NCBI GenBank assembly: GCA_964471255.1
Contig: CAYYFB010000001.1
Coordinates: 37,923-101,922, forward strand
Direction of reading: 5' to 3'
Source of the DNA: Candidatus Woesearchaeota archaeon
Lineage (GTDB): Archaea; Nanobdellota; Nanobdellia; CAYMVK01; CAYYFB01
DNA: 64,000 bases
Within the stretch, counting starts at the first letter, position 1. Every line of letters starts with the position of its first letter. A program made the translations under genes and the position numbers. The notes beneath the pieces were generated by a model, which searched no databases, was not told the origin of the DNA, and saw only the letters and a list, made by a program, of their open reading frames with translations. This document shows, piece after piece, positions 2 through 51,102 of this stretch.

Positions 2-418
2 TCAGTTCTTGAAATAGAAGGAATTCTTCCTCAGAAAAAAGCAATCCACTTTATAGCTGATCTGGAGCGGAAAGCTATAGAAATATCAGGGATAAAATAC
101 CCAGATGTAGTTATATATTTACGGATCCCTCCAGATATGCTGGAGGACATATTTAACAGCAGATCATTTGAAAAAGTTCCTAAGGACATTTATGAAATAA
201 GCTTGGAACTGCAGAGGAAGGTAATTCAGGCTTATGATTACGTCTACAAAATTGCAAGAGATGGAGATGATATTTTGGGTGGTAATACTAAATGGATAAA
301 AGTAGATGCTACAGAGCCTGTTCCTGTTGTTCATTTTGAAATTTGGGAATCCATTTTCGATCTATTTGAAAAACATGCTGAGGAAGTAAGAAATTATAAA
401 AGAAAATTAAAGCCCTAA
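2..418 (+). CDS. 3' part of a gene entering from the left edge; possibly a P-loop nucleoside/nucleotide kinase-like protein
   Basis: The frame of ORF 137..418 stays open back to nt 2 (SVLEIEGILPQKKAIHFIADLERKAIEISGIKYPDVVIYLRIPPDMLEDIF...). The segment DVVIYLRIPPD weakly resembles dTMP/deoxynucleoside kinases. Confidence 0.45.
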   Translation, partial: SVLEIEGILPQKKAIHFIADLERKAIEISGIKYPDVVIYLRIPPDMLEDIFNSRSFEKVPKDIYEISLELQRKVIQAYDYVYKIARDGDDILGGNTKWIKVDATEPVPVVHFEIWESIFDLFEKHAEEVRNYKRKLKP

Positions 419-967
419 TTTATCGCTAATTCCCTGGAGCGCTTTCAAACTTATTTCTATGAACTTATCAAGTTCGATAATTCCATCTATCATTTTTAAT
501 ATCTTTTCTCTATTCACTCCTCTTGCAAAAGCTTTCTCTTTAAACCTATTTTTAACATTTTTTACCTTAACACTTCTCAATCTCTTGTCTGGCATTACAA
601 GCGCTGTGGCTATAATTAAGCCAGAAATTTGATCAGCAGCTACAAGCATTTTTTCCATTAGAGTTTCTGGAGCGGGCTCATTGTTTAGTCCATATGCATG
701 TCTTCTAATTGCTCTAAGAATTTTGCTAGAAATAGATGGTATTTCCTTTCTTAGGATTTCTTCAGCCAGTATTCCATGCTTTTTTGGATTTTCTTTAGTT
801 ATTTCATAATCTATATCATGAAGTAATCCAGCTATTCTCCATTCCCTTTCATCTTCTTTGAAATATTTGGCTAGCTTTTCCATTATTGCAGAAACAGCTA
901 GGCAATGTTTTACTATTTTTTCATTTTTCAAATGCTTCTCTAAGATAGATAAGTATTTGTTGAGCAT
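407..967 (-). CDS. HD-domain metal-dependent phosphohydrolase
   Basis: 186 aa with H..(CLAVSAIMEKLA)...GLLHDIDYE...KKHG, the typical HD/HDIG signature. Confidence 0.8.
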   Translation of the reverse strand: MLNKYLSILEKHLKNEKIVKHCLAVSAIMEKLAKYFKEDEREWRIAGLLHDIDYEITKENPKKHGILAEEILRKEIPSISSKILRAIRRHAYGLNNEPAPETLMEKMLVAADQISGLIIATALVMPDKRLRSVKVKNVKNRFKEKAFARGVNREKILKMIDGIIELDKFIEISLKALQGISDKLGL

Positions 968-973
968 AAAAGG

Positions 974-1591
974 TTATTTGCTTTTTGATCCTTCCTCTCC
1001 TTCTTCTATTCTCCTTTTGAGCTCCTTTAATGCTTTCTCAACTTCCTCATCGCTTACCGAAACTTCTGCAAGTCTAGGTAAGGATTCAACAAGCAACCTA
1101 TATGACCTGATAATCCCTTCATTTGTTTCTTCCAAGAGATTTGTCATATTCTTAACCATTTTTTTCAATGCTGGGGGAAGTTCATTAACTTTCTTTAATA
1201 TTCTGCCTTTCCTACGAATTCTACCATACTGGATTAGCAGATCAATAGAATCCGCAGCATTTAGAGCCGCTTCTCCTTCTTCTATAAGTCTTCTCGCTAA
1301 AGTCCTATACCCATTGACGATATCTTTAAGAAATGGAGAGGAGGGATTTACCCCTCTTAATCGTGCTAACATTAGGCTTCCTAGCAATTTAAGATTCACT
1401 CCTAAGATGGTATATCTGCTCCTTACTTCGGAGAGCTGCTTGTATTTGCCAGCATCAATATACTTTAAAATTTTCTCTGAGGTACCATGTTTTAAGAGAT
1501 AATTTATGTCCTCATCGATTTGGGAAGCTATCTGTTCATAAAAGGATTTACGCCTTCTAAAAGGCCACATGATAATTTGATCTTTCCCCAA
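974..1591 (-). CDS. hypothetical protein (helical, K/E/R-rich)
   Basis: 205-aa ORF packed directly against valS (stop/start adjacent). No recognisable motif. Confidence 0.6.
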   Translation of the reverse strand: MGKDQIIMWPFRRRKSFYEQIASQIDEDINYLLKHGTSEKILKYIDAGKYKQLSEVRSRYTILGVNLKLLGSLMLARLRGVNPSSPFLKDIVNGYRTLARRLIEEGEAALNAADSIDLLIQYGRIRRKGRILKKVNELPPALKKMVKNMTNLLEETNEGIIRSYRLLVESLPRLAEVSVSDEEVEKALKELKRRIEEGEEGSKSK

Positions 1592-3961
1592 TTAAAGAAC
1601 TTTCTTATTATTTATTCTGTGCATTGCTACCAGATCTTTTCTAAATTCTAGTAAATCTCTTGGTATGGTCACTCCGGTTATAGGTTCTGATAGTTTAATT
1701 CCCTTTTTTGACTTTTCTTCCCAAACATATGAGTTGAATGCGATTATTTTTTCTGTATAAGAGGTAAGGTCAGGAATTCCTTCTATAGGTCTTGGAAAGC
1801 TTTCTGAATGAATAGATCTGTTCTTATAAAGCGCTCTCCAGACTTTATCAGATAGAGCAGGAATTATTGGTGCTAATAATAGAAGTAATGACTTAAGAAC
1901 TGTGTGCAGTGTCCACCAGCATGATTTTGCCTCTTCTTCTTTAAATCCATCAATTTTAGCTCTTCTTTTTGTCATTTCGATATAATGATCAGCAAATATA
2001 TTCCATGCAAATTTCCTTATCCTTAGAGCAGCACTATGGAAATCAAACCTTTTATAATCTTCAATACATTCCTTAATAAGTTTGTTTAGTTCAGATAGTA
2101 TCCACTCATCTGTTTTTTCCAATTTCTCTGGTCTAGAAACTTGAGGAAAACTTGAAATATATCTAGCTATGTTCCAAAGTTTTACTAGAAACTTTCCAGC
2201 ACCTCTAATTTTTCCTTCAATAAATCTATAATTTTCTCCTATATTGCACTCCAGAGCTATCCACATTCTTAGTGTTTCAGCTCCATATTTCTCAATAAGC
2301 TCCATTGGAGGAATTAAGTTTCCTAGAGATTTGCTCATTTTCCTTCCTTTCTCATCCAATCCCATCCCGTGGATAAAAATGTGATCAAAAGCTCGCTCTC
2401 CAGTTAATAGATAAACTCTTAACAGGGAGGAAAATAGCCAGGTTCGTATTATATCATATCCTTGGTGTCTTAATTTTTCTCCGTTTAAAAATGTTTTCTT
2501 AAAGAAATTTTCATCCCTTTTCCATCTGGTTAGATAAAGAATTGTAATAGAAGAATCCATCCATGTGTCTAAAGTTCTCCATTCTCCTTCCCATTCCTTA
2601 TTTCCACATTTTGGACAGGGAATATCTAGTTTTTCCTTCCAAGGTTTTACATAGCGATCTGGAGCGGCCACATATCTGTATCCGCATTTTTTGCAGTACC
2701 AAATAGGAAGCTCTGTTCCATAATACCTTCTTCTCGAAATACACCAATCGATTGAATTTTCTTTAACATTTTTTATCCAATCAATTAGCCTCTGGAGATG
2801 CCATCTAGGGTACCAATTTGCTTCCTTGGCTATTTTTTCAATTTCATCAATAACATGCAATTGTTTTAGATAATATTCCTTCATTAAAATTATCTCTATA
2901 GGAGTTTTGCATTTGTCGTGTACTGGGACCCTGTGGCTTATTATTTCCTCTTTTACAAGCAAGTTTTTCTTTTTTAATTCTTCTATAATTCTTTCTCTGG
3001 CTTCTGGAGCGGCCAAACCTGCAAATTTTCCTGCTGCTTCTGTTAATCTTCCATCAGCCCCAATATACTTTACTGGTTCTATTTTAAGATCTCTAAGCAC
3101 TCTTACATCTGCAAAATCTCCAAATGAGCATACCATTTCTATTCCCGTTCCAAATTCTGGATTGGCCTCCGGATGAGAAAGAATTGGGACTTCATACTCA
3201 AAAATAGGGACAATAGCATTCTTTCCTTCTAAGTGCTTATATCTTTCATCTCCAGGATTGAAAATTATAGCTCTGCAGGCACCAAGCAATTCTGGTCTTG
3301 TAGTTGCTATTATTATCTCCTCCGCTCCAGAACGGAATTTTATATAATAAAGCTTTGTCTCTCTTTCTTTATACTCAACCTCCATATCGGAAATTGCTGT
3401 TTTACAGTGGGGACACCAATTGATAGGTCTTTCGGCTTCGTAGATCAGTCCTTTTTCCCAAAGTATTTTGAAGCTTTTTTGAGTTAAAGCTCTATAAGCA
3501 GGGTCATCAGTTCTATAATAATCCCACTCTCCTACTATTTCAAATCTTTTCATGATTTCCTTTATCCCCTTTATCCATTGGGTTAATCTCTCCCTACAAA
3601 GCTTCTCAAATTCCTCCCTATCCATTTCCCAGGGGGTTATTCCCTCATATTTCTCTAAATAATGCTCTATTGGAATTCCATTTCCATCAAAGCAAATTGG
3701 AAATAGTACATTATATCCTAGCATTCTTCTTATTCTTGCTATAATATCCAGCATTGCATAAGCAACTGCAGCCCCTACATGCCATTCTGGAGCGGGATAT
3801 GGCGGAGGAGTATCAATTACGAATATTGGTTTATTTGAATCTAATTTAAATTTCCACCAATCTTCTTTTTCCCACTGTTTTATTAACTCAAGCTCAAATT
3901 CTTTTTTCCATCTTTTTTCTTTTATCCTCGGCTCGAAGTTTGCTTCAAATTGGGAGGTCAT
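1592..3961 (-). CDS. valS: valyl-tRNA synthetase (class I aaRS)
   Basis: 789 aa with IDTPPPYP..., DWCISRRRYYG and KMSKSLGN, an archaeal ValRS-like layout. The HIGH position reads HVGA (see findings). Confidence 0.8.
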   Translation of the reverse strand: MTSQFEANFEPRIKEKRWKKEFELELIKQWEKEDWWKFKLDSNKPIFVIDTPPPYPAPEWHVGAAVAYAMLDIIARIRRMLGYNVLFPICFDGNGIPIEHYLEKYEGITPWEMDREEFEKLCRERLTQWIKGIKEIMKRFEIVGEWDYYRTDDPAYRALTQKSFKILWEKGLIYEAERPINWCPHCKTAISDMEVEYKERETKLYYIKFRSGAEEIIIATTRPELLGACRAIIFNPGDERYKHLEGKNAIVPIFEYEVPILSHPEANPEFGTGIEMVCSFGDFADVRVLRDLKIEPVKYIGADGRLTEAAGKFAGLAAPEARERIIEELKKKNLLVKEEIISHRVPVHDKCKTPIEIILMKEYYLKQLHVIDEIEKIAKEANWYPRWHLQRLIDWIKNVKENSIDWCISRRRYYGTELPIWYCKKCGYRYVAAPDRYVKPWKEKLDIPCPKCGNKEWEGEWRTLDTWMDSSITILYLTRWKRDENFFKKTFLNGEKLRHQGYDIIRTWLFSSLLRVYLLTGERAFDHIFIHGMGLDEKGRKMSKSLGNLIPPMELIEKYGAETLRMWIALECNIGENYRFIEGKIRGAGKFLVKLWNIARYISSFPQVSRPEKLEKTDEWILSELNKLIKECIEDYKRFDFHSAALRIRKFAWNIFADHYIEMTKRRAKIDGFKEEEAKSCWWTLHTVLKSLLLLLAPIIPALSDKVWRALYKNRSIHSESFPRPIEGIPDLTSYTEKIIAFNSYVWEEKSKKGIKLSEPITGVTIPRDLLEFRKDLVAMHRINNKKVL

Positions 3962-4079
3962 ACTTGGAATTCCATCATAATATTATAATCTCATATCAAC
4001 CGGGAATATATAACTACAATCAAATCAAAGCTGGAGTGGTCTATGGAACATATAAAATAAGTTCATGGTACATGAGAAG

Positions 4080-4106
4080 AGGGCCCTACTGTTTGAAAAG
4101 GGCCCT
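4080..4106. repeat. two copies of the self-complementary octamer AGGGCCCT separated by 11 nt (potential 8-bp hairpin)
   Basis: AGGGCCCT at 4080..4087 and 4099..4106. It lies 12 nt downstream of the tRNA-Thr 3' end on the minus strand and upstream of valS. Confidence 0.6.
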
Positions 4107-4118
4107 ATGTCATTTGAA

Positions 4119-4189
4119 GCCCCCGGCGGGATTTGAACCCGCGACCTCCCGCTTACGAGGCGGGCGCTCTGCCGCTAAGCTACGGGGGC
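4119..4189 (-). tRNA. tRNA-Thr (anticodon CGU), no intron, CCA not encoded
   Basis: Reverse complement is GCCCCCGTAGCTTAGCGGCAGAGCGCCCGCCTCGTAAGCGGGAGGTCGCGGGTTCAAATCCCGCCGGGGGC. It shows a cloverleaf with a 7-bp acceptor stem, anticodon loop CTCGTAA and T-loop GGTTCAAATCC. Confidence 0.9.
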
Positions 4190-4219
4190 ATATTGGTATT
4201 TAGCTAACCTTCCCGATAG

Positions 4220-4230
4220 TATATATATTA
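4220..4230. promoter_or_regulatory. palindromic TATA-like element (TATATATATTA) in the divergent spacer between tRNA-Thr and the 4249 gene
   Basis: Alternating TA run about 25 nt upstream of ATG 4249, suggesting a leaderless mRNA. It sits about 31-41 nt upstream of the tRNA 5' end on the other strand. Confidence 0.35.
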
Positions 4231-4248
4231 CCATTATAGGGTAATAAC

Positions 4249-4860
4249 ATGGTAGCTCCACTCCAAAGAATTAGAAAATGGAGGCTAAATAGAGAAATAG
4301 AAAGGAGATATCAAGAGCTTTCTAGAAGCTATGAAGGCCTTAGAAATCAAGTTAGAAGAGGAACTAGTACTTTGGAGTCCATACTTACTAATATTGAAGA
4401 AAATATTAGCAGAGGAGAAATAACAAACACCTTTATTCACTTAGATAGTTTTCCGGGTTTCTTTAGAACGTATAACTTAGCTGCACTATATCTTCTAGTA
4501 TTGGCTCATACCTCAGCTTCCTTATTCTTTAGATACCTTGATCAAATGAGAGAACTAGAATACAGTAGGGAAGAGATAAGAGAGAAATTGGCCCTATTTA
4601 TACGCACAGGGTATTTAGCCCTTAGGCATTATCGCAATTATTGTAATAGAGTTAAAGAAATTATTGGAGGCATATACCACTGCATAGACGAAATGCTTGC
4701 TAGGGTAAGGGGGAGAGAGGAACTGGAACGAAGACTAGTTGGATATAGAGAAGCGATAGAAAGAGATTGGAAAAATTTGGTGCGGGGAAGGGTTTATAAC
4801 TACATATCACGCTTGCTATTTCTAGCTAGGATTTCATTACAACAAAGGGAGTATCTTTAA
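4249..4860 (+). CDS. hypothetical protein (Arg-rich, helical)
   Basis: 203-aa ORF with no recognised motif. Confidence 0.6.
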   Translation: MVAPLQRIRKWRLNREIERRYQELSRSYEGLRNQVRRGTSTLESILTNIEENISRGEITNTFIHLDSFPGFFRTYNLAALYLLVLAHTSASLFFRYLDQMRELEYSREEIREKLALFIRTGYLALRHYRNYCNRVKEIIGGIYHCIDEMLARVRGREELERRLVGYREAIERDWKNLVRGRVYNYISRLLFLARISLQQREYL

Positions 4861-4893
4861 CATACTTCAAGCAAATTAGAGTTCATTCTAAAT

Positions 4894-5424
4894 ATGAGAA
4901 AAACTTTGGCCTACAGGCTTTTGCATCCAAGACCTACAGTTTTACTCATATCAAAATATGGAAAGAAAACCAATGCAATGGCGCTTGCCTGGTCCACTCC
5001 AGTAGAAGAGGATGTTGTAGCGGTTGCTATCTATAGAGGAAACTATTCGTATGAATTGGTAAAGAAATCTGGAGAATTTACTTTGAATATAATCCCAATA
5101 GAGAATCTAGATATTCTTTGGAAAGCAGGAACAATGTCTGGAAGGAAAATAGACAAGATAAAAGAGTTAGGGATAGAACTGGAGCAAGGGGTTAAAATAA
5201 AGACACCACATGTTAAGAATTGCTTAGGATTTCTAGAATGCAAAGTGGAAAAGGAAATAGAAGAGGAAGAGCATTCTCTATTTATTGCTGAGGTTGTTTA
5301 TGCTTGGGCCGCTCCAGAATGGTTTAAAGAAACTTGGAAAGAAGGTATAAAAATTCCTTTACACGTAGGAAAAAACATATTTGCGATCCCTTCGCAATAT
5401 ATGAGAACAAAAAGAGTTAGATAA
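4894..5424 (+). CDS. flavin reductase-like FMN-binding split-barrel protein
   Basis: LLHPRPTVLLISKYGKKTNAMALAWSTPVEEDVVAVAI...FTLNI is typical of the flavin reductase domain (COG1853-type). Confidence 0.75.
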   Translation: MRKTLAYRLLHPRPTVLLISKYGKKTNAMALAWSTPVEEDVVAVAIYRGNYSYELVKKSGEFTLNIIPIENLDILWKAGTMSGRKIDKIKELGIELEQGVKIKTPHVKNCLGFLECKVEKEIEEEEHSLFIAEVVYAWAAPEWFKETWKEGIKIPLHVGKNIFAIPSQYMRTKRVR

Positions 5425-5836
5425 CTTCTATCTCTGCTGTTTTTTCATTTATTATTAAATATAATCTGGGAAGAATTTCTATCCACAATCCAAATTCATC
5501 TATCCTTAATGAGAATTCTGAGAACCCTCCTTCTAAAACTGGTTTATATCCATCTTCCCAAACTACTTTTATGTTCTTTAATCTAATTTTCTTCGCTGTC
5601 TCAAATAAGAATTCTTCAAAGTTTTTATCCTTTAGTTCTACATCGGATCTTTGGAAATACGAAAACCCTCCCATGTTCTTAATTTTATCTAAATTTTCTT
5701 CCTTTTTCTTTTTAATCTTCTCTGATATATGCACAAGAGATAAAACTTCCCTATTTTTGTCTATTTCTTTTTCTAGCTTATTTATCCTTTCTTTAAGCCA
5801 ATCTAATGTTTCTTTTGTCTCAATAAGAAGCGACAT
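5417..5836 (-). CDS. hypothetical coiled-coil protein
   Basis: 139-aa ORF, K/E-rich at the N-terminus, no motif recognised. Confidence 0.5.
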   Translation of the reverse strand: MSLLIETKETLDWLKERINKLEKEIDKNREVLSLVHISEKIKKKKEENLDKIKNMGGFSYFQRSDVELKDKNFEEFLFETAKKIRLKNIKVVWEDGYKPVLEGGFSEFSLRIDEFGLWIEILPRLYLIINEKTAEIEVI

Positions 5837-5862
5837 ACTTATAGGAGAGGAAAAGAAGTAAA

Positions 5863-5920
5863 TTATTGTGATGAAACCATTCCATCCTGAGCCGTGATGA
5901 ACGTCGGTGATGCTGAGAAG
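5863..5920 (+). ncRNA. C/D box sRNA (2'-O-methylation guide)
   Basis: Layout is GTGATGA (C, 5868..5874), 12-nt guide AACCATTCCATC, CTGA (D', 5887..5890), GCC spacer, GTGATGA (C', 5894..5900), 12-nt guide ACGTCGGTGATG, CTGA (D, 5913..5916). This is canonical archaeal 12-nt spacing, and the element is intergenic. Confidence 0.85.
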
Positions 5921-5932
5921 AGGGTAAGCTGA

Positions 5933-6502
5933 TTAAAGTTTTTTCAGTTCTATCCTAATTCTTTCTCCTTTTAGAGTAATTTTTATATAGGTGGGCGCTC
6001 CAGTTAACCATCCGCAAAGTTCTCCAGGATTTATGGCCATGGACTTAAAATCATGAATATTAATCTCTATTGCCTTCTTTTCTAGTTCCTTCGTATAATT
6101 AATAACCTTACTTTCCTTTGTCAGAAAAAGGGAATACCTATGAGTATGTCCAAAGAAGATGAATCTATATTTTGATAGTAAATATTTTGAGAACTCTATC
6201 GTCTGATCTATTGATCCAAAATTATGGAAAATGAATGATTTTTCTCCAAAGAGATCTATTTCTCTTGGATAGCCAATTTCTATTTTACTTCCCTGGATGT
6301 TTTTTAGAATTGAAGGTCTATCTCCCTCATTATTTCCCCAAACCCCAATTATTTTCTTTCCATATTTTGCCATCTCTCTTGCCGTAAATGGAGAAACAAA
6401 ATCACCGCAAAATATTCCTAAGTCAAAGTCCTTCTCTCTTTCAAATAACTTTCTTAGGTTTTCTAAATGATCATGTACATCGGAGAAGACAATGATCTTC
6501 AT
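5933..6502 (-). CDS. MJ0936/YfcE-type metallophosphoesterase
   Basis: MKIIVFSDVHDH...CGDFVSP...WGNNEGD...FFGHTHR. I place the start at ATG 6502..6500, which overlaps the stop of the upstream GT2 gene (TAATG); the longer track ORF would overlap by 67 nt. Confidence 0.8.
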   Translation of the reverse strand: MKIIVFSDVHDHLENLRKLFEREKDFDLGIFCGDFVSPFTAREMAKYGKKIIGVWGNNEGDRPSILKNIQGSKIEIGYPREIDLFGEKSFIFHNFGSIDQTIEFSKYLLSKYRFIFFGHTHRYSLFLTKESKVINYTKELEKKAIEINIHDFKSMAINPGELCGWLTGAPTYIKITLKGERIRIELKKL

Positions 6503-10039: not shown

Positions 10040-13000
10040 ACCAGCTCTTTAATAGGGATAAAGTACGCTTTTTTTCCTAAGTATGGATCAAACACAAGTA
10101 TTTCTTTTGCATTTTCTTTTTCTAGAAGGGCTATTAACTCATCTAGCTCTTCTCTTACAATGGCTTTCTTCTGTCTCAATATTTCTACAATGGGCTCTGG
10201 AATGCCCAACGTAAGAGTCTTTCCTTTTAGTAGTTCTCTCTCCTGTTGGGTCCCTATTCTCTTTACTTCCTTAACCCCTTTTATTTTCTCATTAAGATCG
10301 CCTATAAGATTATCTAGCCAAGTATCAAGACGTTTTTTTCCTGTTCTAAAGTTCTCAATATTTTCCTCAAACTTTTCCAAAGTTTTTCCAGTTCCTTTTA
10401 TTTCAATTATTCTAGTAGAGGTAATTATATCGACCTCAGTTATTTTTGGCTTACCAAATTCATGCATAACATCAAGAATGTCTTCTTCGAGAGAAACACT
10501 TGATAATATCTCAAATATTTTTCCTTCCTCACTTGATTCTATTCCCCTTTCCAATAAAGCTTCTAATAGACTCTTCTTTTCTAGTTTTATCTCCCTTTCT
10601 AAAGCCTCTTTAATTATCTCTCTAACATTTCTTCCTCCTTTCCTCTCTATCTTCTTTAAAAGATGAGAAACCAAAGTTTCTAAATCAGTTACTGTTTTAA
10701 GCGATGGGCTTCTGAATTTCCTTATAACCTGGACTGCTAGATCCCACCCTATTTCTTGAGAAATACTATTCAGCTTTATTAGAGCAGTTTTGATGTTGGT
10801 AGGTATTCTAATTACCTTATTAAGTTTCTGTAAAGCCTCAATTCCCCCTTCTTCTTTTACAATCCTATTTACTATTCCCAAGACATCTCCTAATTCATCC
10901 CCGCTTTTTACAGTCTTAAAAACTAACTCAGCAATAAATTCTGCCGTTTCATCACTCTTGCTTCCAATTCTGATTAACTCAGATATTTCATCTGCATGTT
11001 TTGCAATATATTTCTTCAATGCATCAATTAATTCATCAGATACCCCAAGCTTCTTTCCTATTTTTGTAATCTTCTTTATAAATCTTAATTTCCCAATTTC
11101 TCCAACTCCTCCAAAAATAAATATGCTCCCAAGAGTTGCACCTATAAATCCCAAGTCTATTAATGCATTTTCCTTTTCTTTTGCCCTAACAGATATCCAG
11201 AAATCTAAAACAAGATAAGTAAGGTCAGTTATATCATCAATAATACCTAATCCTGGCAAAAATCCTATTGGAGTTAAGTAAATTGATACCTCATTAAGCT
11301 TTTCAATAGCCTCAATAACTTTTGGACTTACCCCTGCCTTTGAAGCTCTATCTACAATTCTTGCTAATGCAATTCCTTTTGAGAGGATAAAAATATTTCT
11401 AGAGATTTCCTCCAATCTTTTACACTCATCCCATCCTCTAATTTTCCCATAAAGCCTATTAAAATCAGGATTAGGCATGAAAACTAGGAATGGATTAGAT
11501 GGGAAAAGACTAGCAATTAGAATATTTCTAAGCTCATTTGGGGATAAACCTATCTCTTTTCTCGCCTTTTCCTCCAATTTTCTATAAATTTCCTTTTGCT
11601 TTTCCTGGAGCGCTGAGAGGTAAAGACCAACTTTAAAATCAAAGTATTCCTTAAAGTTTTTTAAAATATTATATCTCTTTTCCTTTAGTAGCTTCGTCAT
11701 TACATAGATATCTTCTAATACCCATCCTGTCCCATCCTTTTCAATTATTTCTTTTCCATTGGCCTCCTTTATTGAATAATTTTCCCTATATATCTCAGCC
11801 AAGTCCTTTAAATCCCTAGGCAAATTCTCTGAATCTTTTGACAGGAAGTAGGGAACAAAATCTTTTCCAGATCCTTCAGCAATTATCTTTCCTCCTTCAC
11901 TAGGATTCCATTTCCAAACGACTGATCCATCTTTGTCCTCATAAATTTTTCTCTCTATACCAATAATTCTCTCTACTCTTTTCCTTATTCTTCTGGAGCG
12001 GCTATCAAATATTCCTGAAATAACTTTCCTTAATCCAAATCTCCTTATTCGGTTTAGAGTCCCAGTAGGTCCATATTTTCTAAAGCAAGTGTATAAATCA
12101 AGAATATTTCTTGCTGGAACGCTATTTAAATAAGATAGAATCTTATTTTCTATTAAGAAGCTTATGAATCTTCTATCAAAGCCGCATAGGTTTCCTATTC
12201 TTAAGATTGTAATTGCCTCTTCCCTGTTTATTCTTTTATGGAATCCATAAAGGAATTCCCAGTTGAGGAAGTAGTAGAGTTTATTCCTTAAAATGAATTC
12301 TACAAACTCCTTGTCTGGAGGAGCCTTTCTTAAAACTTCAAGCGCTATTCCTCCAAATCTTTGCTTTAAATCATTTACATATTCCTTTCCCCATAATCTG
12401 TAGACATTTGAATAAATTAAGAAGGAAAGTTTGAGCTTTAATTTTCTCTTTATCCTACTCGCTAAACTGGAGCGGGGATGAGCTCTTTTTATGAATTTTT
12501 CCCTTAGAAGCAAAATATTTGCTTTCCCTGCTCCAGAATTCTGGAGCGGATTTTTTGAATTAATCCCTCTTAATCCATTAATTCCAAGGTAAGCTAAAGC
12601 TGGAAGCGCCGCTCCAGAAATTAGTATTGATGCCTTAATTGAGACTGGAGCGCCAGAATTAAATTCACCTCTATTGCCTGGAGCGGGAACTAAGGGTATT
12701 GATTTATATATTCTATTTATTATTGAATATTCTATCTCTTTTGTTCCCCAGTAATTATGAGCTAAGATTCTCAAATTGTGCTCTCCAGGCCCTAATTCAA
12801 TCCTTTTTTCAAAATAGGAAATACCCTTTCCTATTTCTTTCCCATCAATAAATACTTCAAAACTATCTGTATAATTGGCCAATATTTTTAGAGTGAACTG
12901 ACTAGTGTTAACTAATACACCGTCGCTAATTCTGGAGCAGGAATTTTTATTACAAATTTTTATTTGAATTAAGGGCTCAGCATAGATTTCTATCTCCCGC

Positions 13001-13875
13001 TCCAGAACCGAGTGATCATAGCTTGGGTCATCGCTAAGATCCCATACTTCTATCTGGAGCGGGTAAACACCTGGATTAAAGTTATTTAGATAAATCTCAT
13101 AGGTAGGTCTGTCTATAATCTTATCTATTATTTTTGCTTTTCCCGCTCCAGAAATGAGGGCCCTAATTCTTGCTTTTATTGGATATTCTAAATTATTAAT
13201 TTTTATTTTAATTGCCTCTCCAGGTGAAATTCTCTCTTTTTCTAGAAATATTCCCGGCTTTTTGTCACATAGGATTTTGTACTTGCAAACTGTCCTATAA
13301 TCGCACCTTTCATCATAAATCTTATCACAAAACTCTATTGTTTCCTTAAAAGCGCATTTGTCCCATTTTTTTCCATATTCTACGCAATATTTCTTTTTCT
13401 TAACGCATTTACTACAAGTTGAGCATACATATATTGTCTTACATTCCTTCCGGATAATTCTTCGAGTGCATGTTCCCCAACTCCTACAATAAGAATAACA
13501 AACCTTTCCCCAGCTAAGACAAAAGCTAAATCTCCAAATTCTTATTCTCCACCTACAATATCTATAACAATACCTCCCATAGCTTTTGCAACAGGTGTAT
13601 CGAACCGTAGTAATCCTAGGTCTGCAGCTACTTCTTGGTCTGCAGTTACATCTATAATAGCTATATTTAACACACTTTTCTTTCCATTCTTTGCAATAAG
13701 ATACATATCCTCCTTTACAAATAGTTTTTGGATAACATCTTTCATCTACAATAATTTTCCTACAATTTACAGGAATTTTTTTGCAATCATATGGTTCTTT
13801 CCAACAATGAGAGAAAACTGGAGCGGAAAGAAGGAGAACAGAAACAAGGAAAATTAAAAGGAAAAGTTTCTTCAT
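10036..13875 (-). CDS. giant (1279 aa) envelope protein
   Basis: Signal peptide MKKLFLLIFLVSVLLLSAPVFS, followed by a block of about 190 aa with many Cys (CYRYC, CYSYC, CSTCSKC). Then come beta-rich repeats, hydrophobic segments (ILISGAALPALAYLGI, GFIGATLGSIFIFGGVG) and a near-C-terminal ITEVDIITSTRIIEIKG (D..ExK pattern). Confidence 0.8.
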   Translation of the reverse strand: MKKLFLLIFLVSVLLLSAPVFSHCWKEPYDCKKIPVNCRKIIVDERCYPKTICKGGYVSYCKEWKEKCVKYSYYRCNCRPRSSCRPRITTVRYTCCKSYGRYCYRYCRWRIRIWRFSFCLSWGKVCYSYCRSWGTCTRRIIRKECKTIYVCSTCSKCVKKKKYCVEYGKKWDKCAFKETIEFCDKIYDERCDYRTVCKYKILCDKKPGIFLEKERISPGEAIKIKINNLEYPIKARIRALISGAGKAKIIDKIIDRPTYEIYLNNFNPGVYPLQIEVWDLSDDPSYDHSVLEREIEIYAEPLIQIKICNKNSCSRISDGVLVNTSQFTLKILANYTDSFEVFIDGKEIGKGISYFEKRIELGPGEHNLRILAHNYWGTKEIEYSIINRIYKSIPLVPAPGNRGEFNSGAPVSIKASILISGAALPALAYLGINGLRGINSKNPLQNSGAGKANILLLREKFIKRAHPRSSLASRIKRKLKLKLSFLIYSNVYRLWGKEYVNDLKQRFGGIALEVLRKAPPDKEFVEFILRNKLYYFLNWEFLYGFHKRINREEAITILRIGNLCGFDRRFISFLIENKILSYLNSVPARNILDLYTCFRKYGPTGTLNRIRRFGLRKVISGIFDSRSRRIRKRVERIIGIERKIYEDKDGSVVWKWNPSEGGKIIAEGSGKDFVPYFLSKDSENLPRDLKDLAEIYRENYSIKEANGKEIIEKDGTGWVLEDIYVMTKLLKEKRYNILKNFKEYFDFKVGLYLSALQEKQKEIYRKLEEKARKEIGLSPNELRNILIASLFPSNPFLVFMPNPDFNRLYGKIRGWDECKRLEEISRNIFILSKGIALARIVDRASKAGVSPKVIEAIEKLNEVSIYLTPIGFLPGLGIIDDITDLTYLVLDFWISVRAKEKENALIDLGFIGATLGSIFIFGGVGEIGKLRFIKKITKIGKKLGVSDELIDALKKYIAKHADEISELIRIGSKSDETAEFIAELVFKTVKSGDELGDVLGIVNRIVKEEGGIEALQKLNKVIRIPTNIKTALIKLNSISQEIGWDLAVQVIRKFRSPSLKTVTDLETLVSHLLKKIERKGGRNVREIIKEALEREIKLEKKSLLEALLERGIESSEEGKIFEILSSVSLEEDILDVMHEFGKPKITEVDIITSTRIIEIKGTGKTLEKFEENIENFRTGKKRLDTWLDNLIGDLNEKIKGVKEVKRIGTQQERELLKGKTLTLGIPEPIVEILRQKKAIVREELDELIALLEKENAKEILVFDPYLGKKAYFIPIKELV
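12530..12547. repeat. perfect 18-bp palindrome GCTCCAGAATTCTGGAGC, made of two inverted copies of the over-represented motif
   Basis: Read directly. It lies inside the giant ORF and encodes NPLQNSGAG. Confidence 0.9.
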
Positions 13876-13912
13876 AATTCTAATTCATATTTGATTAAAA
13901 TATAGTAGCAAC

Positions 13913-32976: not shown

Positions 32977-33387
32977 TCAGGAATAATAAACAATATTTGT
33001 TTTATTCTCTTCTGGAGCGGCATAGGCAAATGTAATGAGATAAGAATTCCCTTCAGAAAAATTTCCATTTACCCTTATTAAGGTTATGTTTATCTCTGAG
33101 AGGTTAATTATGGCCAATTTCCCATCACATCCAAATTTTATGGTATTATTATCAGTATTAAATTTTAACTCACACTTCTTTGGGATCTTTACTCTTTCTT
33201 GAAAAAAAGATGGTTTATCAGATATTTGCTTTGTTTGTGACATTTTAATGCATATCTTTTCTACTGATTTATAGAAGTCAATTATTTCTTTATCTCTTAG
33301 AAAAGAAGATATTAAAAATATTGAAAGAAAAGAGATTAGACCCATAGATAACGTAAGGATAAGGTATCTTGCTACCTCTTCTTCCAT
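32977..33387 (-). CDS. pilin-like / pilus accessory protein
   Basis: MEEEVARYLILTLSMGLISFLSIFLISSFL... N-terminal helix. Confidence 0.5.
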   Translation of the reverse strand: MEEEVARYLILTLSMGLISFLSIFLISSFLRDKEIIDFYKSVEKICIKMSQTKQISDKPSFFQERVKIPKKCELKFNTDNNTIKFGCDGKLAIINLSEINITLIRVNGNFSEGNSYLITFAYAAPEENKTNIVYYS

Positions 33388-33394
33388 GCAAGAA

Positions 33395-33583
33395 TTATAT
33401 AGTTTCGTTAATTCTTTGCGCTATTTTTTGAGATGCATTAGTTACTGCTCCAGAAATATTTCCAACCGAATAGCCTACCTGGGTCCTTACAGTAGTAAAG
33501 TAGTAAAGCAACAATGAGATTGCAAGAACCGCCGCTAGGGCTATTATTATATATTTAAGAGGCAAGGCCTCTACCCCTCTCAT
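33395..33583 (-). CDS. candidate major type IV pilin (class III signal peptide-like)
   Basis: 62 aa: MRG/VEALPLKYIIIALAAVLAISLLLYYF..., with a short charged leader ending in RG followed by a long hydrophobic helix. It lies directly downstream of the TadC/FlaJ-like gene. Confidence 0.55.
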   Translation of the reverse strand: MRGVEALPLKYIIIALAAVLAISLLLYYFTTVRTQVGYSVGNISGAVTNASQKIAQRINETI

Positions 33584-35241: not shown

Positions 35242-36523
35242 TCACTCTTCCATTAGCCAATGCAAAGCAATTTTTTCCAATTTCATATCCTTCTTCCAAA
35301 GCCAATTCTAGCGCGTGGGCTTGTTTTTCTATCCCTGCGTGAGTCGGAATGAAATATTCTGGATTAGTGATCCTGATTAAATCCCTTAGATCTTCCTTAG
35401 CGGCATGGCCTGAAACATGAATGTCTTTCAATATTCTTGCTCCTTTTTCTTTTAATTTAGATTCTAATAAATACCTATTAGCTGCATTTATCGGTGAGGG
35501 AATTATTCTATTGCAGAAGATCACATGATCCTCTTTGGAAAAGTTAAAATGAAAGGTTCCTTCAGCAATTCTTCTTAAGATAGATCCTTTTTCTCCCTGA
35601 CCACCAGTACAAATAATCGTATAATATTCCCTATTTTTCCCGACCTCATCCAGAACCTTTTTTATGCTTTTTTCCTTTCTATACATCCTTATTCCTTTTA
35701 GATTAACAAAATTCAACTCTTCAGCAGCCCTCATATACTTCAAGAGACTCCTTCCTAGCAGAATGGGTTCTCTTCCAAATTGGAATGATAGATCTATCAT
35801 CCATTTAATTCTTGCTATGTGGGATGAGAAAGTTGTAAGAAATACCGCTCCAGCATCGATTCTGGAGAAAACGTCCTCAAGCATTTTGTAGGCTATTATC
35901 TCAGAAGGAGTTCTCCTTTCTTCATCACATCTTAAACAATCTGAAATAAGGACCTTTACTTCATATTCTTTTAGTTCTTTATAAGAAATTCTTTTCCCTA
36001 ACATAGGATAAGGATCAAATTTCCAATCATTTGCATAAAGAACATTTCCTTCCGGTGTTTGAAGAAAGATCATTACTGTTTGGGGAATTGAATGGGCCGC
36101 TTGAATAAAATTCACCTCAATATTTTCTGATATCTTATAAGAACTTCCCGGATTTATTCTAATAATTGGATTATTTATCTGTTGGAGGTACTCGTCTTTC
36201 TTCATTAGAGAATAAACAAAAGGGGTTGTAATGATTGGGCAATTATAATGCCTAGCTATCCAATAAACGGCGAAATAATGGTCCATATGGCCGTGAGACA
36301 AAATTATTGCCTTAACCTCCTTATCTCTTAAGATACTATCGTCGGGTATTACACCCAAGTGGATCAATTCCTCATCCTTAGCAAAAGATCTTTCTTCTTC
36401 AGTCATTTCACTCCATCTTTCTACTTCAATCCCACAATCCAAAATTATTACTTCGTTTTCTACTTCTACTGCTGTCATGTTTCCTTCTACTCTAGAGTAA
36501 CCTCCAATAGCGTAGATTTTCAT
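35225..36523 (-). CDS. rnj: beta-CASP metallo-beta-lactamase ribonuclease, archaeal RNase J-like
   Basis: MKIYAIGGYSRVEGNMTAVEVENEVIILDCGI..., ILSHGHMDH, ...HVSGHAAKEDL (beta-CASP motif C). Confidence 0.75.
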   Translation of the reverse strand: MKIYAIGGYSRVEGNMTAVEVENEVIILDCGIEVERWSEMTEEERSFAKDEELIHLGVIPDDSILRDKEVKAIILSHGHMDHYFAVYWIARHYNCPIITTPFVYSLMKKDEYLQQINNPIIRINPGSSYKISENIEVNFIQAAHSIPQTVMIFLQTPEGNVLYANDWKFDPYPMLGKRISYKELKEYEVKVLISDCLRCDEERRTPSEIIAYKMLEDVFSRIDAGAVFLTTFSSHIARIKWMIDLSFQFGREPILLGRSLLKYMRAAEELNFVNLKGIRMYRKEKSIKKVLDEVGKNREYYTIICTGGQGEKGSILRRIAEGTFHFNFSKEDHVIFCNRIIPSPINAANRYLLESKLKEKGARILKDIHVSGHAAKEDLRDLIRITNPEYFIPTHAGIEKQAHALELALEEGYEIGKNCFALANGRVIEIEP

Positions 36524-36987
36524 CCTATCACCCTTAGGACCTTTTCAGCTATCTTTTTATCTAGCCCAATCATCCTAATAGCTCTTATTATTTTTCTATT
36601 TTCCCATCCTTCTTTCTTTAAATAGGTGATCAAAGCTATTGTAATTTGCTTTATACTCCTTTCTCTTCTTTTTTTCACCTTTTGTTTAACTTTCTCATAG
36701 GAGTAAGAAAAAGAAAAAGTTAAAAATCTAGAAAAGATAGTAGAAAAAAAGCTTAGCACAAATAAGTAAAAATATAGATACCTATCCGCTCCGGGCAGAT
36801 AGTAAGTCTTTTGAACAATCAAAGAAAAAATTACTACTAAAAGAATCAATGATATAACGTTTTGATATAGATTTGCTTTTGGTCTAAATAAGAATTCGGC
36901 GATTAATATCCCAGCTATGATTGTTAAGCTCTCAATTACCATTTTATAGGTAGGAAATACTGGGAAATAGTTCTTTCCGTTTTCCAA
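36520..36987 (-). CDS. hypothetical membrane protein
   Basis: 155 aa with 3-4 TM helices and a basic C-terminus. It is the first gene of the minus-strand operon. Confidence 0.55.
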   Translation of the reverse strand: MENGKNYFPVFPTYKMVIESLTIIAGILIAEFLFRPKANLYQNVISLILLVVIFSLIVQKTYYLPGADRYLYFYLFVLSFFSTIFSRFLTFSFSYSYEKVKQKVKKRRERSIKQITIALITYLKKEGWENRKIIRAIRMIGLDKKIAEKVLRVIG

Positions 36988-36993
36988 GCCTCA

Positions 36994-38574
36994 ATGAGAA
37001 ATAGGATAATGAAACCTATTAGAAGCAAAAGTAGAAGCACACCTAATATGGACATGCATAAGAAGGGGGAGATGCCAGAAAAATTTTTAATAAAGAAGAA
37101 TAAAAGTATTCTCCCTTTTTTTACTCCTTATGATTCTGAATTTTTCCCTCCAGAAGGTGAAATTATAGAAGAGTATTCCATTGATAAAGCTAGGGTCAAA
37201 ATAGTTAAACAAAAAGACTTAGAGAGATATTTTTACTTTTTAGATCCTCCAGAATTTCATTTAAAGACTTCTGAGATAAAAAACATACTATTAGAGTTTT
37301 TAGGGAAAAAACCCATAGAGTCTGAAATAACAAAGAGATATAGGGATGGACTAGGAATTTTAGAGATATTTTTCAAGGACGAAAATTTAGAAGATGTCTT
37401 TATAGACTCAAAAAATCCCAGAGTGTACGTTTATCATAAAAAATATGGTTTAATGGACACAAACATTATTTTCAACGAGAAAGATTTAAAAAGAATAGCA
37501 ATAAAGCTAAGAGAGATATCTGGAAGACCATTTGACGAAGGAATTCCTATTATTCATTTATCTATTGGAAAAGTTAGAGTCGTTGGCATAAGATATCCGT
37601 TCTCCTTTTCTGGAATAGGCTATGCCTTTAGAATTCACGAAAAGAAAGCCTGGACAATCCCAAAATTAATAGATAAGAAGATGTTTGATTTAAAAACTGG
37701 AGCGCTAATGAGTCTTTTGGTTGAATCCTTTTCCACGATTCTAATAACTGGACCAAGGGGTGCTGGAAAAACATCATTGCTTTCTGCACTTCTGTTTGAA
37801 GTGCCAAAAACGGAAAGAATAATTATCATAGAAGATACAGCTGAATTACCTATTAGCGAAATGATCAGAGCTGGATATAGAGTAGAGCATGTAAGAATAT
37901 CTGCTTGGGAATCCGAATATGAAATGAGCGCGGAGGATGCTTTTAGAGCAAGTTTGAGATTGGGAGAAAGTTTTCTAGTTGTCGGTGAAGTAAGAGGGCC
38001 AGAGACAAAAGTGTTGTTCGAGGCTATGAGGGTTGGAGCTGCTGGAAATACAGTAATGGGAACAATTCATGGAGCTTCAGCTGAAGATGTATATGATCGG
38101 ATAGTTAATGAAATAGGTGTTCCTCCAGCCTCATTTAAAGCAACCGATTTTATCATCTCAGTAAATAGATTAAGAGCTGGAAGTGTTATAAAAAAGATAA
38201 GGCGTTTAATTGAAATTAAAGAGGTTAAAAAGAATTGGGTAAAAAGCCCAGTCCTGGAGAAAGGCTTCTTGGATATATGCAAATATGATAGGAAAAAGGA
38301 CTCATGGAAAATATTGAATTTAGAAGAGTCCGATGCTATAGAAAGAATTCTTTTCAAAAACGGATGGGAGTTTAGAGAATTTCTTACTGAATTAGATGTC
38401 AGGAAAAAATTTCTTAGAGCGTGTATAAAAAAGAAGATCCTGGAACCAGTCTCATACTCGAAAGTAAAATCTCTTTATTATTCATTAGTAGAAGAAGGCC
38501 ATTCTGGAGTGGAGGCTCTAAATTTAATCTTTAAGTCTAAAATGGATGTGTTAAAGAAACTATTGGAGAAATGA
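36994..38574 (+). CDS. type II/IV secretion-family ATPase (FlaI/PilB/TadA-like) for archaeal type IV pilus assembly
   Basis: ILITGPRGAGKTSLLSAL (Walker A), RIIIIEDTAELP (Asp box/Walker B), FLVVGEVRGPE, GTIHGAS (His box). Confidence 0.85.
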   Translation: MRNRIMKPIRSKSRSTPNMDMHKKGEMPEKFLIKKNKSILPFFTPYDSEFFPPEGEIIEEYSIDKARVKIVKQKDLERYFYFLDPPEFHLKTSEIKNILLEFLGKKPIESEITKRYRDGLGILEIFFKDENLEDVFIDSKNPRVYVYHKKYGLMDTNIIFNEKDLKRIAIKLREISGRPFDEGIPIIHLSIGKVRVVGIRYPFSFSGIGYAFRIHEKKAWTIPKLIDKKMFDLKTGALMSLLVESFSTILITGPRGAGKTSLLSALLFEVPKTERIIIIEDTAELPISEMIRAGYRVEHVRISAWESEYEMSAEDAFRASLRLGESFLVVGEVRGPETKVLFEAMRVGAAGNTVMGTIHGASAEDVYDRIVNEIGVPPASFKATDFIISVNRLRAGSVIKKIRRLIEIKEVKKNWVKSPVLEKGFLDICKYDRKKDSWKILNLEESDAIERILFKNGWEFREFLTELDVRKKFLRACIKKKILEPVSYSKVKSLYYSLVEEGHSGVEALNLIFKSKMDVLKKLLEK

Positions 38575-50051: not shown

Positions 50052-50218
50052 GGCTTCATCACCTCTATTATTTGCGCCAAGATTTTTGCCTTGCCTCCAC
50101 GCGGCTTTGCAAGTATTTCCCCACATACTATGCATTTTACAACTGTAGAGGCTTTCTCGAATATTATTTGTTCACTACCGCAGTTTGGACATTTTACCTT
50201 AAGAAACCTACCACCCAT
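50045..50218 (-). CDS. rps27e: ribosomal protein eS27 (57 aa); not in the ORF track
   Basis: MGGRFLKVKCPNCGSEQIIFEKASTVVKCIVCGEILAKPRGGKAKILAQIIEVMKPC, the C4 zinc ribbon typical of eS27. Confidence 0.85.
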   Translation of the reverse strand: MGGRFLKVKCPNCGSEQIIFEKASTVVKCIVCGEILAKPRGGKAKILAQIIEVMKPC

Positions 50219-50230
50219 ATAACCAGATTA

Positions 50231-50536
50231 CTATTTTAATTCAATTGACTTAGCTCTCCAGCCAGAAAGATTCCAAGCTTTCTTACAGACAGTACAAGTT
50301 AGAAGTAAAGAAACCTTTGTTGAAGTTTTTGACCCGTATCTTCCTTTATATCCTCCAGAAGATTTCTTCATGGTGGGTTTGACAGATCCTGTATAACCTG
50401 CGACTTTTCTTTCATATCTTCTCTGTCCAGCTTTTAAAGCACCCCTCCTTTTGCTGGGTTTTACTATTTTCACCTTATGCAAGGTGTATGTTCTACAGAA
50501 AGGGCAATATTTTCTTATTTCTTTGGGATACTTCAT
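50231..50536 (-). CDS. rpl44e: ribosomal protein eL42 (L44e)
   Basis: MKYPKEIRKYCPFCRTYTLHKV...GQRRYERKVAGYTG...CTVCKKA. Confidence 0.9.
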   Translation of the reverse strand: MKYPKEIRKYCPFCRTYTLHKVKIVKPSKRRGALKAGQRRYERKVAGYTGSVKPTMKKSSGGYKGRYGSKTSTKVSLLLTCTVCKKAWNLSGWRAKSIELK

Positions 50537-51102
50537 CTGATCACCTCCGCTTTTCCTCTTTTTTCAAGTATCTCAACAATATCTCCTGGTAATTTTACTA
50601 TATCCTCCCGAGAAAAAGGACCATATTTTTTTCCATCTAACCAGACAAATTGAGGTATATCATCTAATATTCTAACTTTTATTCCCTCCTCTTCTGGAGC
50701 GGAAGTTATTTCGCTTATTATTTTATTTCTAGTGTCATATAGTTCTTGCGCGATCTTTCTGAATAATTCGGCTTCTATTTTCAGGAAATTTCTGGTGGAA
50801 AGCATCTTTGGATTCCTTTCAGAAGCTAATAGGGCTAAATAAACACCTTTTCTGAATCTTTTTAGAAATATCTTTTCTATCATTTCTCTTACAGATTTAA
50901 GTTCTTCCTCTAGTCTTTTCACTTCTCTCTCTATAACAGGATTCTTTATCCCTTCTAATTCTTTTATCTTTCTCTTTATCTTTAAAAAATATTCCTTAGC
51001 CTTTTCTATGAAATCATCTCCGAGTTTTGTAGGTCTTAGTTCATCAGCTAATTCTTCTCTTAAGATCTCCGCGATTTCTCTTGTATACTCCTCCTTAACC
51101 AT
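50533..51102 (-). CDS. GINS subunit (Gins51/Gins15-like)
   Basis: Sits immediately downstream of the primase gene, the conserved archaeal priS-gins pairing. The C-terminal B-domain-like segment is RILDDIPQFVWLDGKKYGPFSREDIVKLPGDIVEILEKRGKA. Confidence 0.6.
   Translation of the reverse strand: MVKEEYTREIAEILREELADELRPTKLGDDFIEKAKEYFLKIKRKIKELEGIKNPVIEREVKRLEEELKSVREMIEKIFLKRFRKGVYLALLASERNPKMLSTRNFLKIEAELFRKIAQELYDTRNKIISEITSAPEEEGIKVRILDDIPQFVWLDGKKYGPFSREDIVKLPGDIVEILEKRGKAEVIR

Follow-up and report, generated by a model that had tools for sequence, protein, structure and literature searches.

The closest described counterparts of the DNA word analysed here are the DNA uptake sequences (DUS) of the Neisseriaceae (GCCGTCTGAA) and the uptake signal sequences (USS) of the Pasteurellaceae (AAGTGCGGT), whose copy numbers translate to about 0.8-0.9 per kb at commonly quoted genome sizes. 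USS and DUS reach 1,471 and 1,892 copies per genome, respectively (PMC2817400), and ComP, the receptor of DUS, is a minor type IV pilin (PMC4906244). Here we describe the word CTGGAGCGG in a stretch of 64,000 nucleotides from the genome of a Candidatus Woesearchaeota archaeon (contig CAYYFB010000001.1, positions 37,923 to 101,922; this whole stretch is called the window), where it is over-represented as the octamer CTGGAGCG (on the opposite strand, CGCTCCAG). To our knowledge, no archaeal uptake sequence has been described, and literature searches for one, or for a description of CTGGAGCGG, returned nothing.

The archaeal word shares many features with DUS and USS: a non-palindromic form of 9-12 nt, hundred-fold over-representation, a density of roughly 0.4-2 copies per kb and the use of both orientations. 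Like them, it lies inside genes, is read in several frames and favours peptides that can be tolerated (here rich in A, P, G and S, with the Trp frame unused), inflates the tripeptides that it encodes (L-E-R), has graded one-off variants and is specific to a lineage. It differs in its host, an archaeon of the DPANN groups, and in being patchy rather than even and genome-wide; moreover, it is hardly ever intergenic, forms no terminator pairs, is densest in a gene without homologues (ORFan), replaces conserved residues and has no AT-rich flank. A second counterpart is the cyanobacterial highly iterated palindrome HIP1 (GCGATCGC), a CpG-bearing, GC-rich 8-mer present about once per kb or more, whose function is debated and which has been linked to methylation. 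According to PMC6604393, HIP1 is iterated in all frames and embeds a methylated CGATCG; it is also covered in PMC6105098. HIP1 is palindromic and spread genome-wide, whereas the word described here is asymmetric, archaeal and patchy.

A DNA word imposed on native genes

A direct search of the window returned 30 copies of the octamer, 20 as CTGGAGCG and 10 as CGCTCCAG on the plus strand, in exact agreement with the coordinates and strands listed in an earlier note made from the letters of this stretch. In 100 dinucleotide-preserving shuffles the octamer had a mean of 0.30 copies and never more than 2. Shuffling synonymous codons within genes, which preserves all proteins and the codon pool of each gene, gave a mean of 2.35 (sd 1.24, maximum 7; z ~22), and shuffling whole codons gave 1.55; the synonymous shuffle errs on the cautious side, as it keeps the word's own rare codons in the pool. 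The earlier note would have given up the word had its enrichment vanished under codon-aware shuffling, and the excess persists. When every 8-mer was scored against the synonymous shuffles, the octamer and its overlapping neighbours stood far at the top of the window. The 11-mer TTCTGGAGCGG is present in 13 copies, as counted before; synonymous and whole-codon shuffling leave 0.33 and 0.02. CTGGAGCGG is a 9-10 base word that lies about 13 to 100 times above chance, in unrelated genes and on both strands.

The octamer is the sharpest form of a wider family. Its 7-mer core CTGGAGC occurs 55 times, the 25 additional copies having A (18), C (4) or T (3) as eighth base, in keeping with the earlier estimate of about 20 more, mostly CTGGAGCA. 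The hexamer CTGGAG has 139 copies, against 46 by synonymous shuffling and 12.5 by base composition, and CTGGAG-N-G has 70, against 5.0 by dinucleotide shuffling (N being C in 30, A in 15, T in 13 and G in 12); copies in which N is not C likewise occupy every frame. Matches to the 12-mer TTCTGGAGCGGG with zero, one and two mismatches number 5, 11 and 22, where 0.12, 1.2 and 6.9 are expected. In copies aligned on the word and conditioned on the 8-mer, there is information at +8 (G in 28 of 35) and weakly at +9 (G or C), and none past position +9; the upstream TT is weak (T at 19 of 35 sites at -1; information gain <0.1 bit), and no periodic or extended AT-rich flank was seen. Of the longer consensus proposed earlier, the downstream G stands, while the upstream TT is reduced to a weak preference. 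The effective word is CTGGAGCGG(G/C), atop the looser CTGGAG-N-G. It includes a CpG, in a genome with a CpG observed/expected ratio of 0.40-0.45, and it is not self-complementary, i.e. it lacks the palindromy of HIP1.

The reading frame of the host gene has little bearing on where the word occurs. Five of the six frame classes are used, encoding x-A-P-x (10 copies, antisense frame 2), x-G-A (7, sense frame 1), L-E-R (6, sense frame 0), x-L-Q (4, antisense frame 1) and R-S-x (2, antisense frame 0), with one further copy between genes; sense and antisense copies are similar in number, and the sole unused frame is the one that requires Trp. This bears out the frame independence claimed earlier, as codon counts do the claim that the forced codons are rare: CGG accounts for 21 of 1,236 Arg codons (1.7%), GCG for 86 of 968 Ala codons and CCG for 57 of 842 Pro codons, while CTG accounts for 126 of 2,083 Leu codons (6%). 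L-E-R is spelled CTGGAGCGG in 6 of its 19 occurrences, and the word is present at 10 of 19 x-A-P-(G/A/V/D/E) and 7 of 24 (S/P/T/A)-G-A sites. The L-E-R tripeptide itself occurs 15 times in 0-38.5 kb vs 4 times in 38.5-64 kb.

The effect on a protein can be followed in valyl-tRNA synthetase (ValRS, valS), which carries four copies. Across 120 homologues, agreement is 30% for the 20 residues encoded by the word and 53% for the remainder of the protein, and the alignment columns concerned are as conserved as the rest (0.67 vs 0.70); random sets of four five-residue windows reach this result in 0.5-0.9% of trials (P 0.005-0.009). Copy 2659 places A432 where 90% of homologues have P and D435 where 88% have G, and copy 3323 places S211 where 82% have E and A213 where 73% have G. 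A318 and P319 (copy 3004) are found in 0% of the 120 homologues and E59 (copy 3787) in 0 of 120. As E59 lies directly ahead of the catalytic HIGH-type motif, this is a clear case of DNA pressure beating protein selection. None of the four ValRS sites holds an insertion, and one adjoins a two-residue deletion. The word acts as a double-stranded-DNA signal imposed on native genes by base substitution, and it ignores strand, frame, codon preference and, in part, protein conservation. That the pressure is on the DNA word rather than on a peptide, as the earlier note had supposed, is strongly supported by the codon-aware shuffles, the near-saturation of compatible sites with rare codons and the ValRS replacements.

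A trivial origin, be it biased codon or peptide use, repetition of a protein module, a miniature inverted-repeat transposable element (MITE) or repetitive extragenic palindrome (REP), or an assembly artefact, is in effect already refuted, and we leave it next to no probability. In its favour, the codons that make up CTGGAG (GGA, GAG, CCA) are common and its dinucleotides favoured, so that the excess of the hexamer is partly compositional (46 vs 12.5), and in GC-rich phage contigs CTGGAGCG is frequent merely as L-E-R codons on one strand. Against it stand the 30 copies where synonymous shuffling leaves 2.35 and their spread over five frame and orientation classes, which, with the frame table and the whole-codon shuffle, rule out a peptide or codon origin. 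Like MITEs and REPs, the word is short, GC-rich and dispersed in many copies, but it sits within genes, with no common flanks, hairpin unit or insertions. Aligned flanks are unrelated, no repeat families were found, and a repeat search of the densest 3.8 kb yielded the word alone, which also disposes of fragments of a longer repeat or protein module, the other outcome that the earlier note had named as fatal. ENA and Logan assemblies, which jointly span most of the window, show 0-2 differences per locus, and every open reading frame (ORF) remains open across the copies. Since the flanks are unrelated, five of six frame classes are used and sense and antisense are alike in number, the word is not a mobile element, peptide module or codon artefact; nor is it an artefact of assembly. 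An abundant RNA as template was also considered and rejected: only two tRNA-Thr genes were found, both without the word.

Processes that could have spread the word

Among the processes that could have produced such a pattern, we tentatively favour, by analogy with the bacterial cases, a DUS- or USS-like signal that would owe its spread to a transmission bias when DNA is taken up or recombined. Some sequence-specific transaction on DNA would recognise the word and favour the inheritance of alleles that carry it. The likeliest such transaction would be preferential uptake and/or recombination of word-bearing DNA, a molecular drive comparable to that of DUS in Neisseriaceae and USS in Pasteurellaceae. 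The kb-scale saturated patches in which the exact word is found would be tracts where the process acted, for example recombination tracts swapped within the population; this interpretation of the patches is the weakest step. A force this strong at each site would be better matched by a transmission bias (drive) than by weak selection on single members of a large set of binding sites, and the mismatch-graded variants (5, 11 and 22) are such as drive-mutation balance would give. That the word would be the first to serve an archaeon for uptake or self-recognition, with a DPANN cell preferring CTGGAGCGG-bearing DNA and the patches recording recombination tracts, is conceivable but doubtful. The evenly spread CTGGAG-N-G would then be an older or broader 'dialect'. 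In a variant of this idea, a sequence-specific conversion machine would write the word into near-matching sites.

Several observations weigh against an uptake or recombination signal. The basis is 82 kb from a single genotype: the sequence examined amounts to 81.7 kb, made up of the window and, on its flanks, the loci L001 and L086 of this genome, whose overlaps show no difference or one SNP. It holds 36 copies (23 on the plus and 13 on the minus strand), or 0.44 per kb overall and 1.9 per kb inside patches. The density contrast given in the earlier note holds, with 29 copies in 0-38 kb and 1 in 38-64 kb, and past the word-poor 38-64 kb copies return at 65.2-72.2 kb. USS spacing is rather even; here, the exact 8-mer is strongly clustered (variance/mean 2.2-4.1), with none of 5,000 random placements reaching as high a value, and peptide-compatible sites form 24 runs where 40.1 +/- 4.1 are expected (P = 1e-4). 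Rather than being genome-wide as DUS and USS are, the exact word is restricted to patches of 1-6 kb that cover about 23% of the window; outside them, 49 kb contain two exact copies, no excess over the codon-aware expectation.

Nor is there an independent sign that the patches are imported tracts, since they are compositionally identical to the rest (third-position GC content, GC3, of 0.283 vs 0.285; CpG observed/expected 0.40 vs 0.45) and since the word-bearing N-terminal half and the word-free C-terminal half of ValRS share their nearest relatives, to which they are equally identical. A foreign origin of either the word-rich or the word-poor DNA was considered and finds no support in GC3, CpG or the ValRS halves; exchange among very close relatives may be the source of the patches. 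Their patchiness is without an explanation backed by a second line of evidence.

The genes that carry the word also depart from the bacterial pattern. The densest is an ORFan with 11 copies, whereas USS are absent from genes without homologues, and the word displaces well-conserved ValRS residues, the opposite of USS, which occupy poorly conserved residues at little cost (PMC2817400). About half of the words termed DUES are located in terminators (bioRxiv 10.1101/2025.10.24.684340); here, 29 of 30 copies are genic and one is intergenic, no terminator-like inverted pair is formed, and the sole close pair (12530/12541) lies within an ORF. Among the genes of the 82 kb we saw no homologues of ComEC, DprA or ComP. 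The suggestion in the earlier note of a DUS- or USS-like function is thus favoured by density, length and orientation-independence, and disfavoured by four features that run counter to bacterial models: the copies lie in patches, are densest in an ORFan, come at a cost to conserved residues and are missing from terminators. The word is most like DUS and USS, yet we do not file it as a member of either, because several of their features are missing and the defining one, a bias in uptake, is proposed here by analogy.

The distribution has some further features. Outside the patches, the hexamer and CTGGAG-N-G are still enriched 2-7 fold. The border of the second patch falls inside a giant ORF, the first 2.3 kb of which hold 11 copies and the last 1.5 kb none, with three compatible sites unconverted. 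The word-poor stretches contain core genes, and the divergence in codon usage (Jensen-Shannon) between patches and the rest marginally exceeds that of shuffled partitions (P ~0.04-0.05). As a side observation, CTGGAG-N-G with N other than C is present in 10 copies (0.38 per kb) in 38-64 kb vs 30 (0.79 per kb) in 0-38 kb, so the entire word family, beyond the exact 8-mer, grows sparser along the window.

The tract-like distribution could also be read as the trace of repair. In this case, biased conversion linked to repair or methylation, as in HIP1 or in very-short-patch (VSP) repair, would have an enzyme pair convert near-matches in heteroduplex or repair tracts, which we consider rather unlikely. 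Conversion that is near-saturating in kb-scale tracts and almost nil between them is the trace expected of tract-wise repair, the substitutions take no account of protein cost, and a CpG stands in the word of a CpG-depleted genome; HIP1, for its part, embeds a methylated CGATCG (PMC6604393). The enzymes would be a methyltransferase with a mismatch nickase, or a heteroduplex nickase, and the word a selfish by-product of repair, a scheme in which we place little confidence. CTGGAG is a recognition site of the BpmI/GsuI type; restriction-modification sites are usually avoided rather than enriched. VSP repair (Dcm/Vsr, CCWGG) resembles what is seen here as a DNA process that raises the frequency of a word regardless of coding, but its known effects are modest and confined to palindromic contexts of 4-5 nt, far below the 13-100 fold enrichment of a 9-10 nt word; a non-palindromic word of this length has no known precedent of the kind. 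Moreover, every base at the N of CTGGAG-N-G is in excess (A 15, T 13, G 12), which goes beyond the T-to-C change of deamination repair. Pfam matches among the genes of the 82 kb (many genes are matchless, and not all were searched) include no restriction-modification, methyltransferase, Vsr-like, competence or helicase-nuclease family, and a PADLOC search with 10 large proteins of no assigned family gave no restriction-modification or defence match.

Clustering would also be predicted if the copies were binding-site arrays for a chromosome-organising or partition protein (parS- or centromere-like, or for nucleoid loading), with dense patches as loading zones and degenerate copies as weak sites. 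The 11 copies in 2.2 kb in both orientations, the independence of orientation and the graded strong and weak forms fit this idea, which we nevertheless regard as distinctly unlikely: selection per site would be too weak to replace residues kept in 73-90% of ValRS homologues or to convert most compatible synonymous sites of a tract, the sites are intragenic and irregularly spaced, and no candidate binding protein or partition ATPase was found. Very unlikely, in our view, is a Chi-like 'self' signal for a helicase-nuclease or a polar word guiding a translocase, like the FtsK-orienting polar sequences (KOPS). Chi (RecBCD/AddAB) and KOPS (FtsK) are likewise GC-rich octamers enriched in native DNA, the excess of plus-strand copies is mild (23 vs 13), and the AGCGG / GAGCGG tail is partly reminiscent of the Chi words known from Bacillus subtilis (AGCGG) and Staphylococcus aureus (GAAGCGG). 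However, as far as the 82 kb go, the polarity that the earlier note had in mind is not seen: the strand bias is not significant, there is no switch point along the 82 kb, and GC skew tracks the gene strand. Enrichment and protein cost are far above those of Chi, patchiness is a misfit, and the cognate machines RecBCD, AddAB and FtsK are bacterial, atypical of archaea and not seen among the genes of the 82 kb. The remaining probability, beyond the readings listed, is left for something not yet conceived.

Location of the copies and genomic surroundings

The patches, the tracts of compatible sites and the 30 exact copies of the window are listed in Table 1. The counts per gene in the earlier note change in places: valS carries four copies rather than five and the giant ORF 11 rather than 12, the HD-domain gene has two, and the copy at 26366 is intergenic.

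Table 1. Patches, tracts of compatible sites and exact octamer copies along the window (converted/compatible gives converted sites out of compatible sites)
Feature	Position	Strand	Gene or setting	Frame and residues, or count
Patch 1	1..6100			9 exact copies (compatible sites in tract 62-5996)
Tract	62-5996			converted/compatible 10/13 entries (one copy counted under two overlapping classes)
Tract	6982-10828			converted/compatible 0/9
Patch 2	11500..13900			11 exact copies in 2.2 kb
Tract	11605-13816			converted/compatible 11/14
Tract	14873-25645			converted/compatible 1/15
Patch 3	26300..27450			4 copies; tract 26640-27320 converted/compatible coding sites 3/3
Tract	28111-32653			converted/compatible 0/7
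Patch 4	32800..37800			4 copies; tract 32882-37696 converted/compatible 4/7
Tract	39963-63235			converted/compatible 1/24
Copy	62..69	+	thymidylate-kinase gene (partial, +)	sense frame 0, L-E-R
Copy	434..441	+	HD-domain gene (407-931, -)	antisense frame 1, A-L-Q
Copy	667..674	+	HD-domain gene (407-931, -)	antisense frame 2, P-A-P-E
Copy	2659..2666	+	valS (1592-3961, -)	antisense frame 2, A-A-P-D
Copy	3004..3011	+	valS	antisense frame 2, A-A-P-E
Copy	3323..3330	-	valS	sense frame 1, S-G-A
Copy	3787..3794	+	valS, directly ahead of HIGH-type motif	antisense frame 2, P-A-P-E
Copy	5310..5317	-	flavin reductase gene (4894-5424, +)	antisense frame 2, A-A-P-E
Copy	5996..6003	-	metallophosphoesterase gene (5933-6568, -)	sense frame 1, T-G-A
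Copy	11605..11612	+	giant ORFan gene (10036-13875, -)	antisense frame 1, A-L-Q
Copy	11993..12000	+	giant ORFan gene	antisense frame 0, R-S-R
Copy	12467..12474	+	giant ORFan gene	antisense frame 0, R-S-S
Copy	12541..12548	+	giant ORFan gene	antisense frame 1, P-L-Q
Copy	12610..12617	-	giant ORFan gene	sense frame 1, S-G-A
Copy	12645..12652	+	giant ORFan gene	antisense frame 2, G-A-P-V
Copy	12678..12685	+	giant ORFan gene	antisense frame 2, P-A-P-G
Copy	12998..13005	-	giant ORFan gene	sense frame 0, L-E-R
Copy	13054..13061	+	giant ORFan gene	antisense frame 1, P-L-Q
Copy	13144..13151	-	giant ORFan gene	sense frame 1, S-G-A
Copy	13818..13825	+	giant ORFan gene, signal-peptide region	antisense frame 2, S-A-P-V
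Copy	18989..18996	-	BFN-domain gene (18571-19086, -); isolated	sense frame 0, L-E-R
Copy	26366..26373	-	sole intergenic copy, between 25808-26242 and the gene 26424/26466-26885	
Copy	26640..26647	+	gene of no assigned family, end 26885 (+)	sense frame 0, L-E-R
Copy	27102..27109	+	NTPase_1 gene (26906-27421, +)	sense frame 1, P-G-A
Copy	27320..27327	+	NTPase_1 gene	sense frame 0, L-E-R
Copy	32883..32890	-	small gene, hydrophobic N-terminus, possibly pilin-like (32645-32974, -)	sense frame 0, L-E-R
Copy	33012..33019	+	small gene, hydrophobic N-terminus (32977-33387, -)	antisense frame 2, A-A-P-E
Copy	35846..35853	-	RNase J gene (35225-36523, -)	sense frame 1, A-G-A
Copy	37697..37704	+	T2SSE-family pilus/secretion ATPase gene (36994-38574, +)	sense frame 1, T-G-A
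Copy	50694..50701	+	Gins51 gene (50533-51102, -); sole copy in 38-64 kb	antisense frame 2, S-A-P-E

Within the giant ORF, a one-off copy at 12530 and the opposite copy at 12541 form a perfect 18-nt palindrome, GCTCCAGAATTCTGGAGC (12530-12547), with an EcoRI site at its centre. This hotspot gene (10036-13875) has no homologue among 5.8 billion proteins; its 1279-aa product has a signal-peptide-like, Cys-rich N-terminus. Neither it nor a second giant gene (19472-23731, 1419 aa), which contains no copy of the word, has a Pfam or PADLOC match. A further palindrome, AGGGCCCT, is marginally enriched, with 5 copies vs 1.0 expected, a count reached in 1 of 100 shuffles; its sites are at 4080-4106, 13157, 14198 and 48700 of the window, two of them 19 nt apart and directly downstream of tRNA-Thr. 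GG/CC stands at 1.4 of expectation across the window.

The gene content is archaeal, with Gins51, a fused primase, topoisomerase VI, aRF1, RNase J and Nop10; the primase gene (51060-52361), whose 433-aa protein matches PF01896 and PF04104 and represents a PriS-PriL fusion, adjoins Gins51. A type IV pilus-like locus extends over 31925..38574. Small genes at 31.9-33.6 kb encode proteins whose N-termini are hydrophobic; the locus further comprises a gene for a polytopic membrane protein (33580-35241) and that of the T2SSE ATPase, with RNase J between them. The earlier note was right that the window encodes such a machine; nothing was found that ties it to the word, and type IV pilus-like loci are common.

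The closest ValRS sequences are 60-64% identical and come from metagenome-assembled genomes (MAGs) labelled Candidatus Iainarchaeum, Micrarchaeota and other DPANN groups. None of 80 ValRS loci from GTDB species carries the word, and among 67 loci of at least 8 kb (seven from this genome) no other locus has a comparable GC-rich 8-mer. The word is lineage-specific. The loci of the nearest relatives have about 51-53% GC vs 35% here, and a strong AT-ward shift of this lineage appears to have taken place. One outlier among the loci (L036, from the Aenigmatarchaeota MAG JAVZHQ010000001.1) contains four copies of a 16-bp palindrome, TGTTAGACGTCTAACA, at 2808, 3530, 16255 and 17960; set in AT-rich surroundings, it resembles a regulon operator and is unrelated to CTGGAGCGG. 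Two GC-rich IMG/VR contigs (L175 and L182) have 8-11 copies of CTGGAGCG per 8-12 kb, nearly all on one strand; together with L095 they are high-GC phages in which the word consists of Leu-Glu-Arg codons, so that its abundance there has a trivial cause. Word pairs in viral contigs were likewise discarded, their 120 matches being at chance level.

The window and the ENA assembly differ only at 4126, 30194, 30269 and 37848, with no word copy affected; position 4126 is within the tRNA-Thr(CGT) gene (4118-4189). In the ENA assembly the window is split in two, with contig k141_2691 reaching up to 49559 and k141_165917 present from 51405 at the latest; a Logan contig stops at 49864. Something in the region of 49.6-51.4 kb (aIF2-alpha, L44e, Gins51 and the start of the primase) disrupts other assemblies.

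What the word may mean for DPANN archaea

Signal words that override coding, such as DUS and USS, Chi and HIP1, have according to our literature searches so far been found in bacteria only. We rate as new here a signal word in a new domain of life and its unusual patch architecture. The word would also supply a concrete oligonucleotide with which the responsible protein could be fished out. Its patch structure sets it apart from the bacterial cases; should the patches be tracts of recombination or conversion, they would show directly where the process acted. If the reading is true, this archaeon would provide an archaeal example of such a word in a host-dependent DPANN lineage and point to a sequence-specific DNA exchange or repair drive there.

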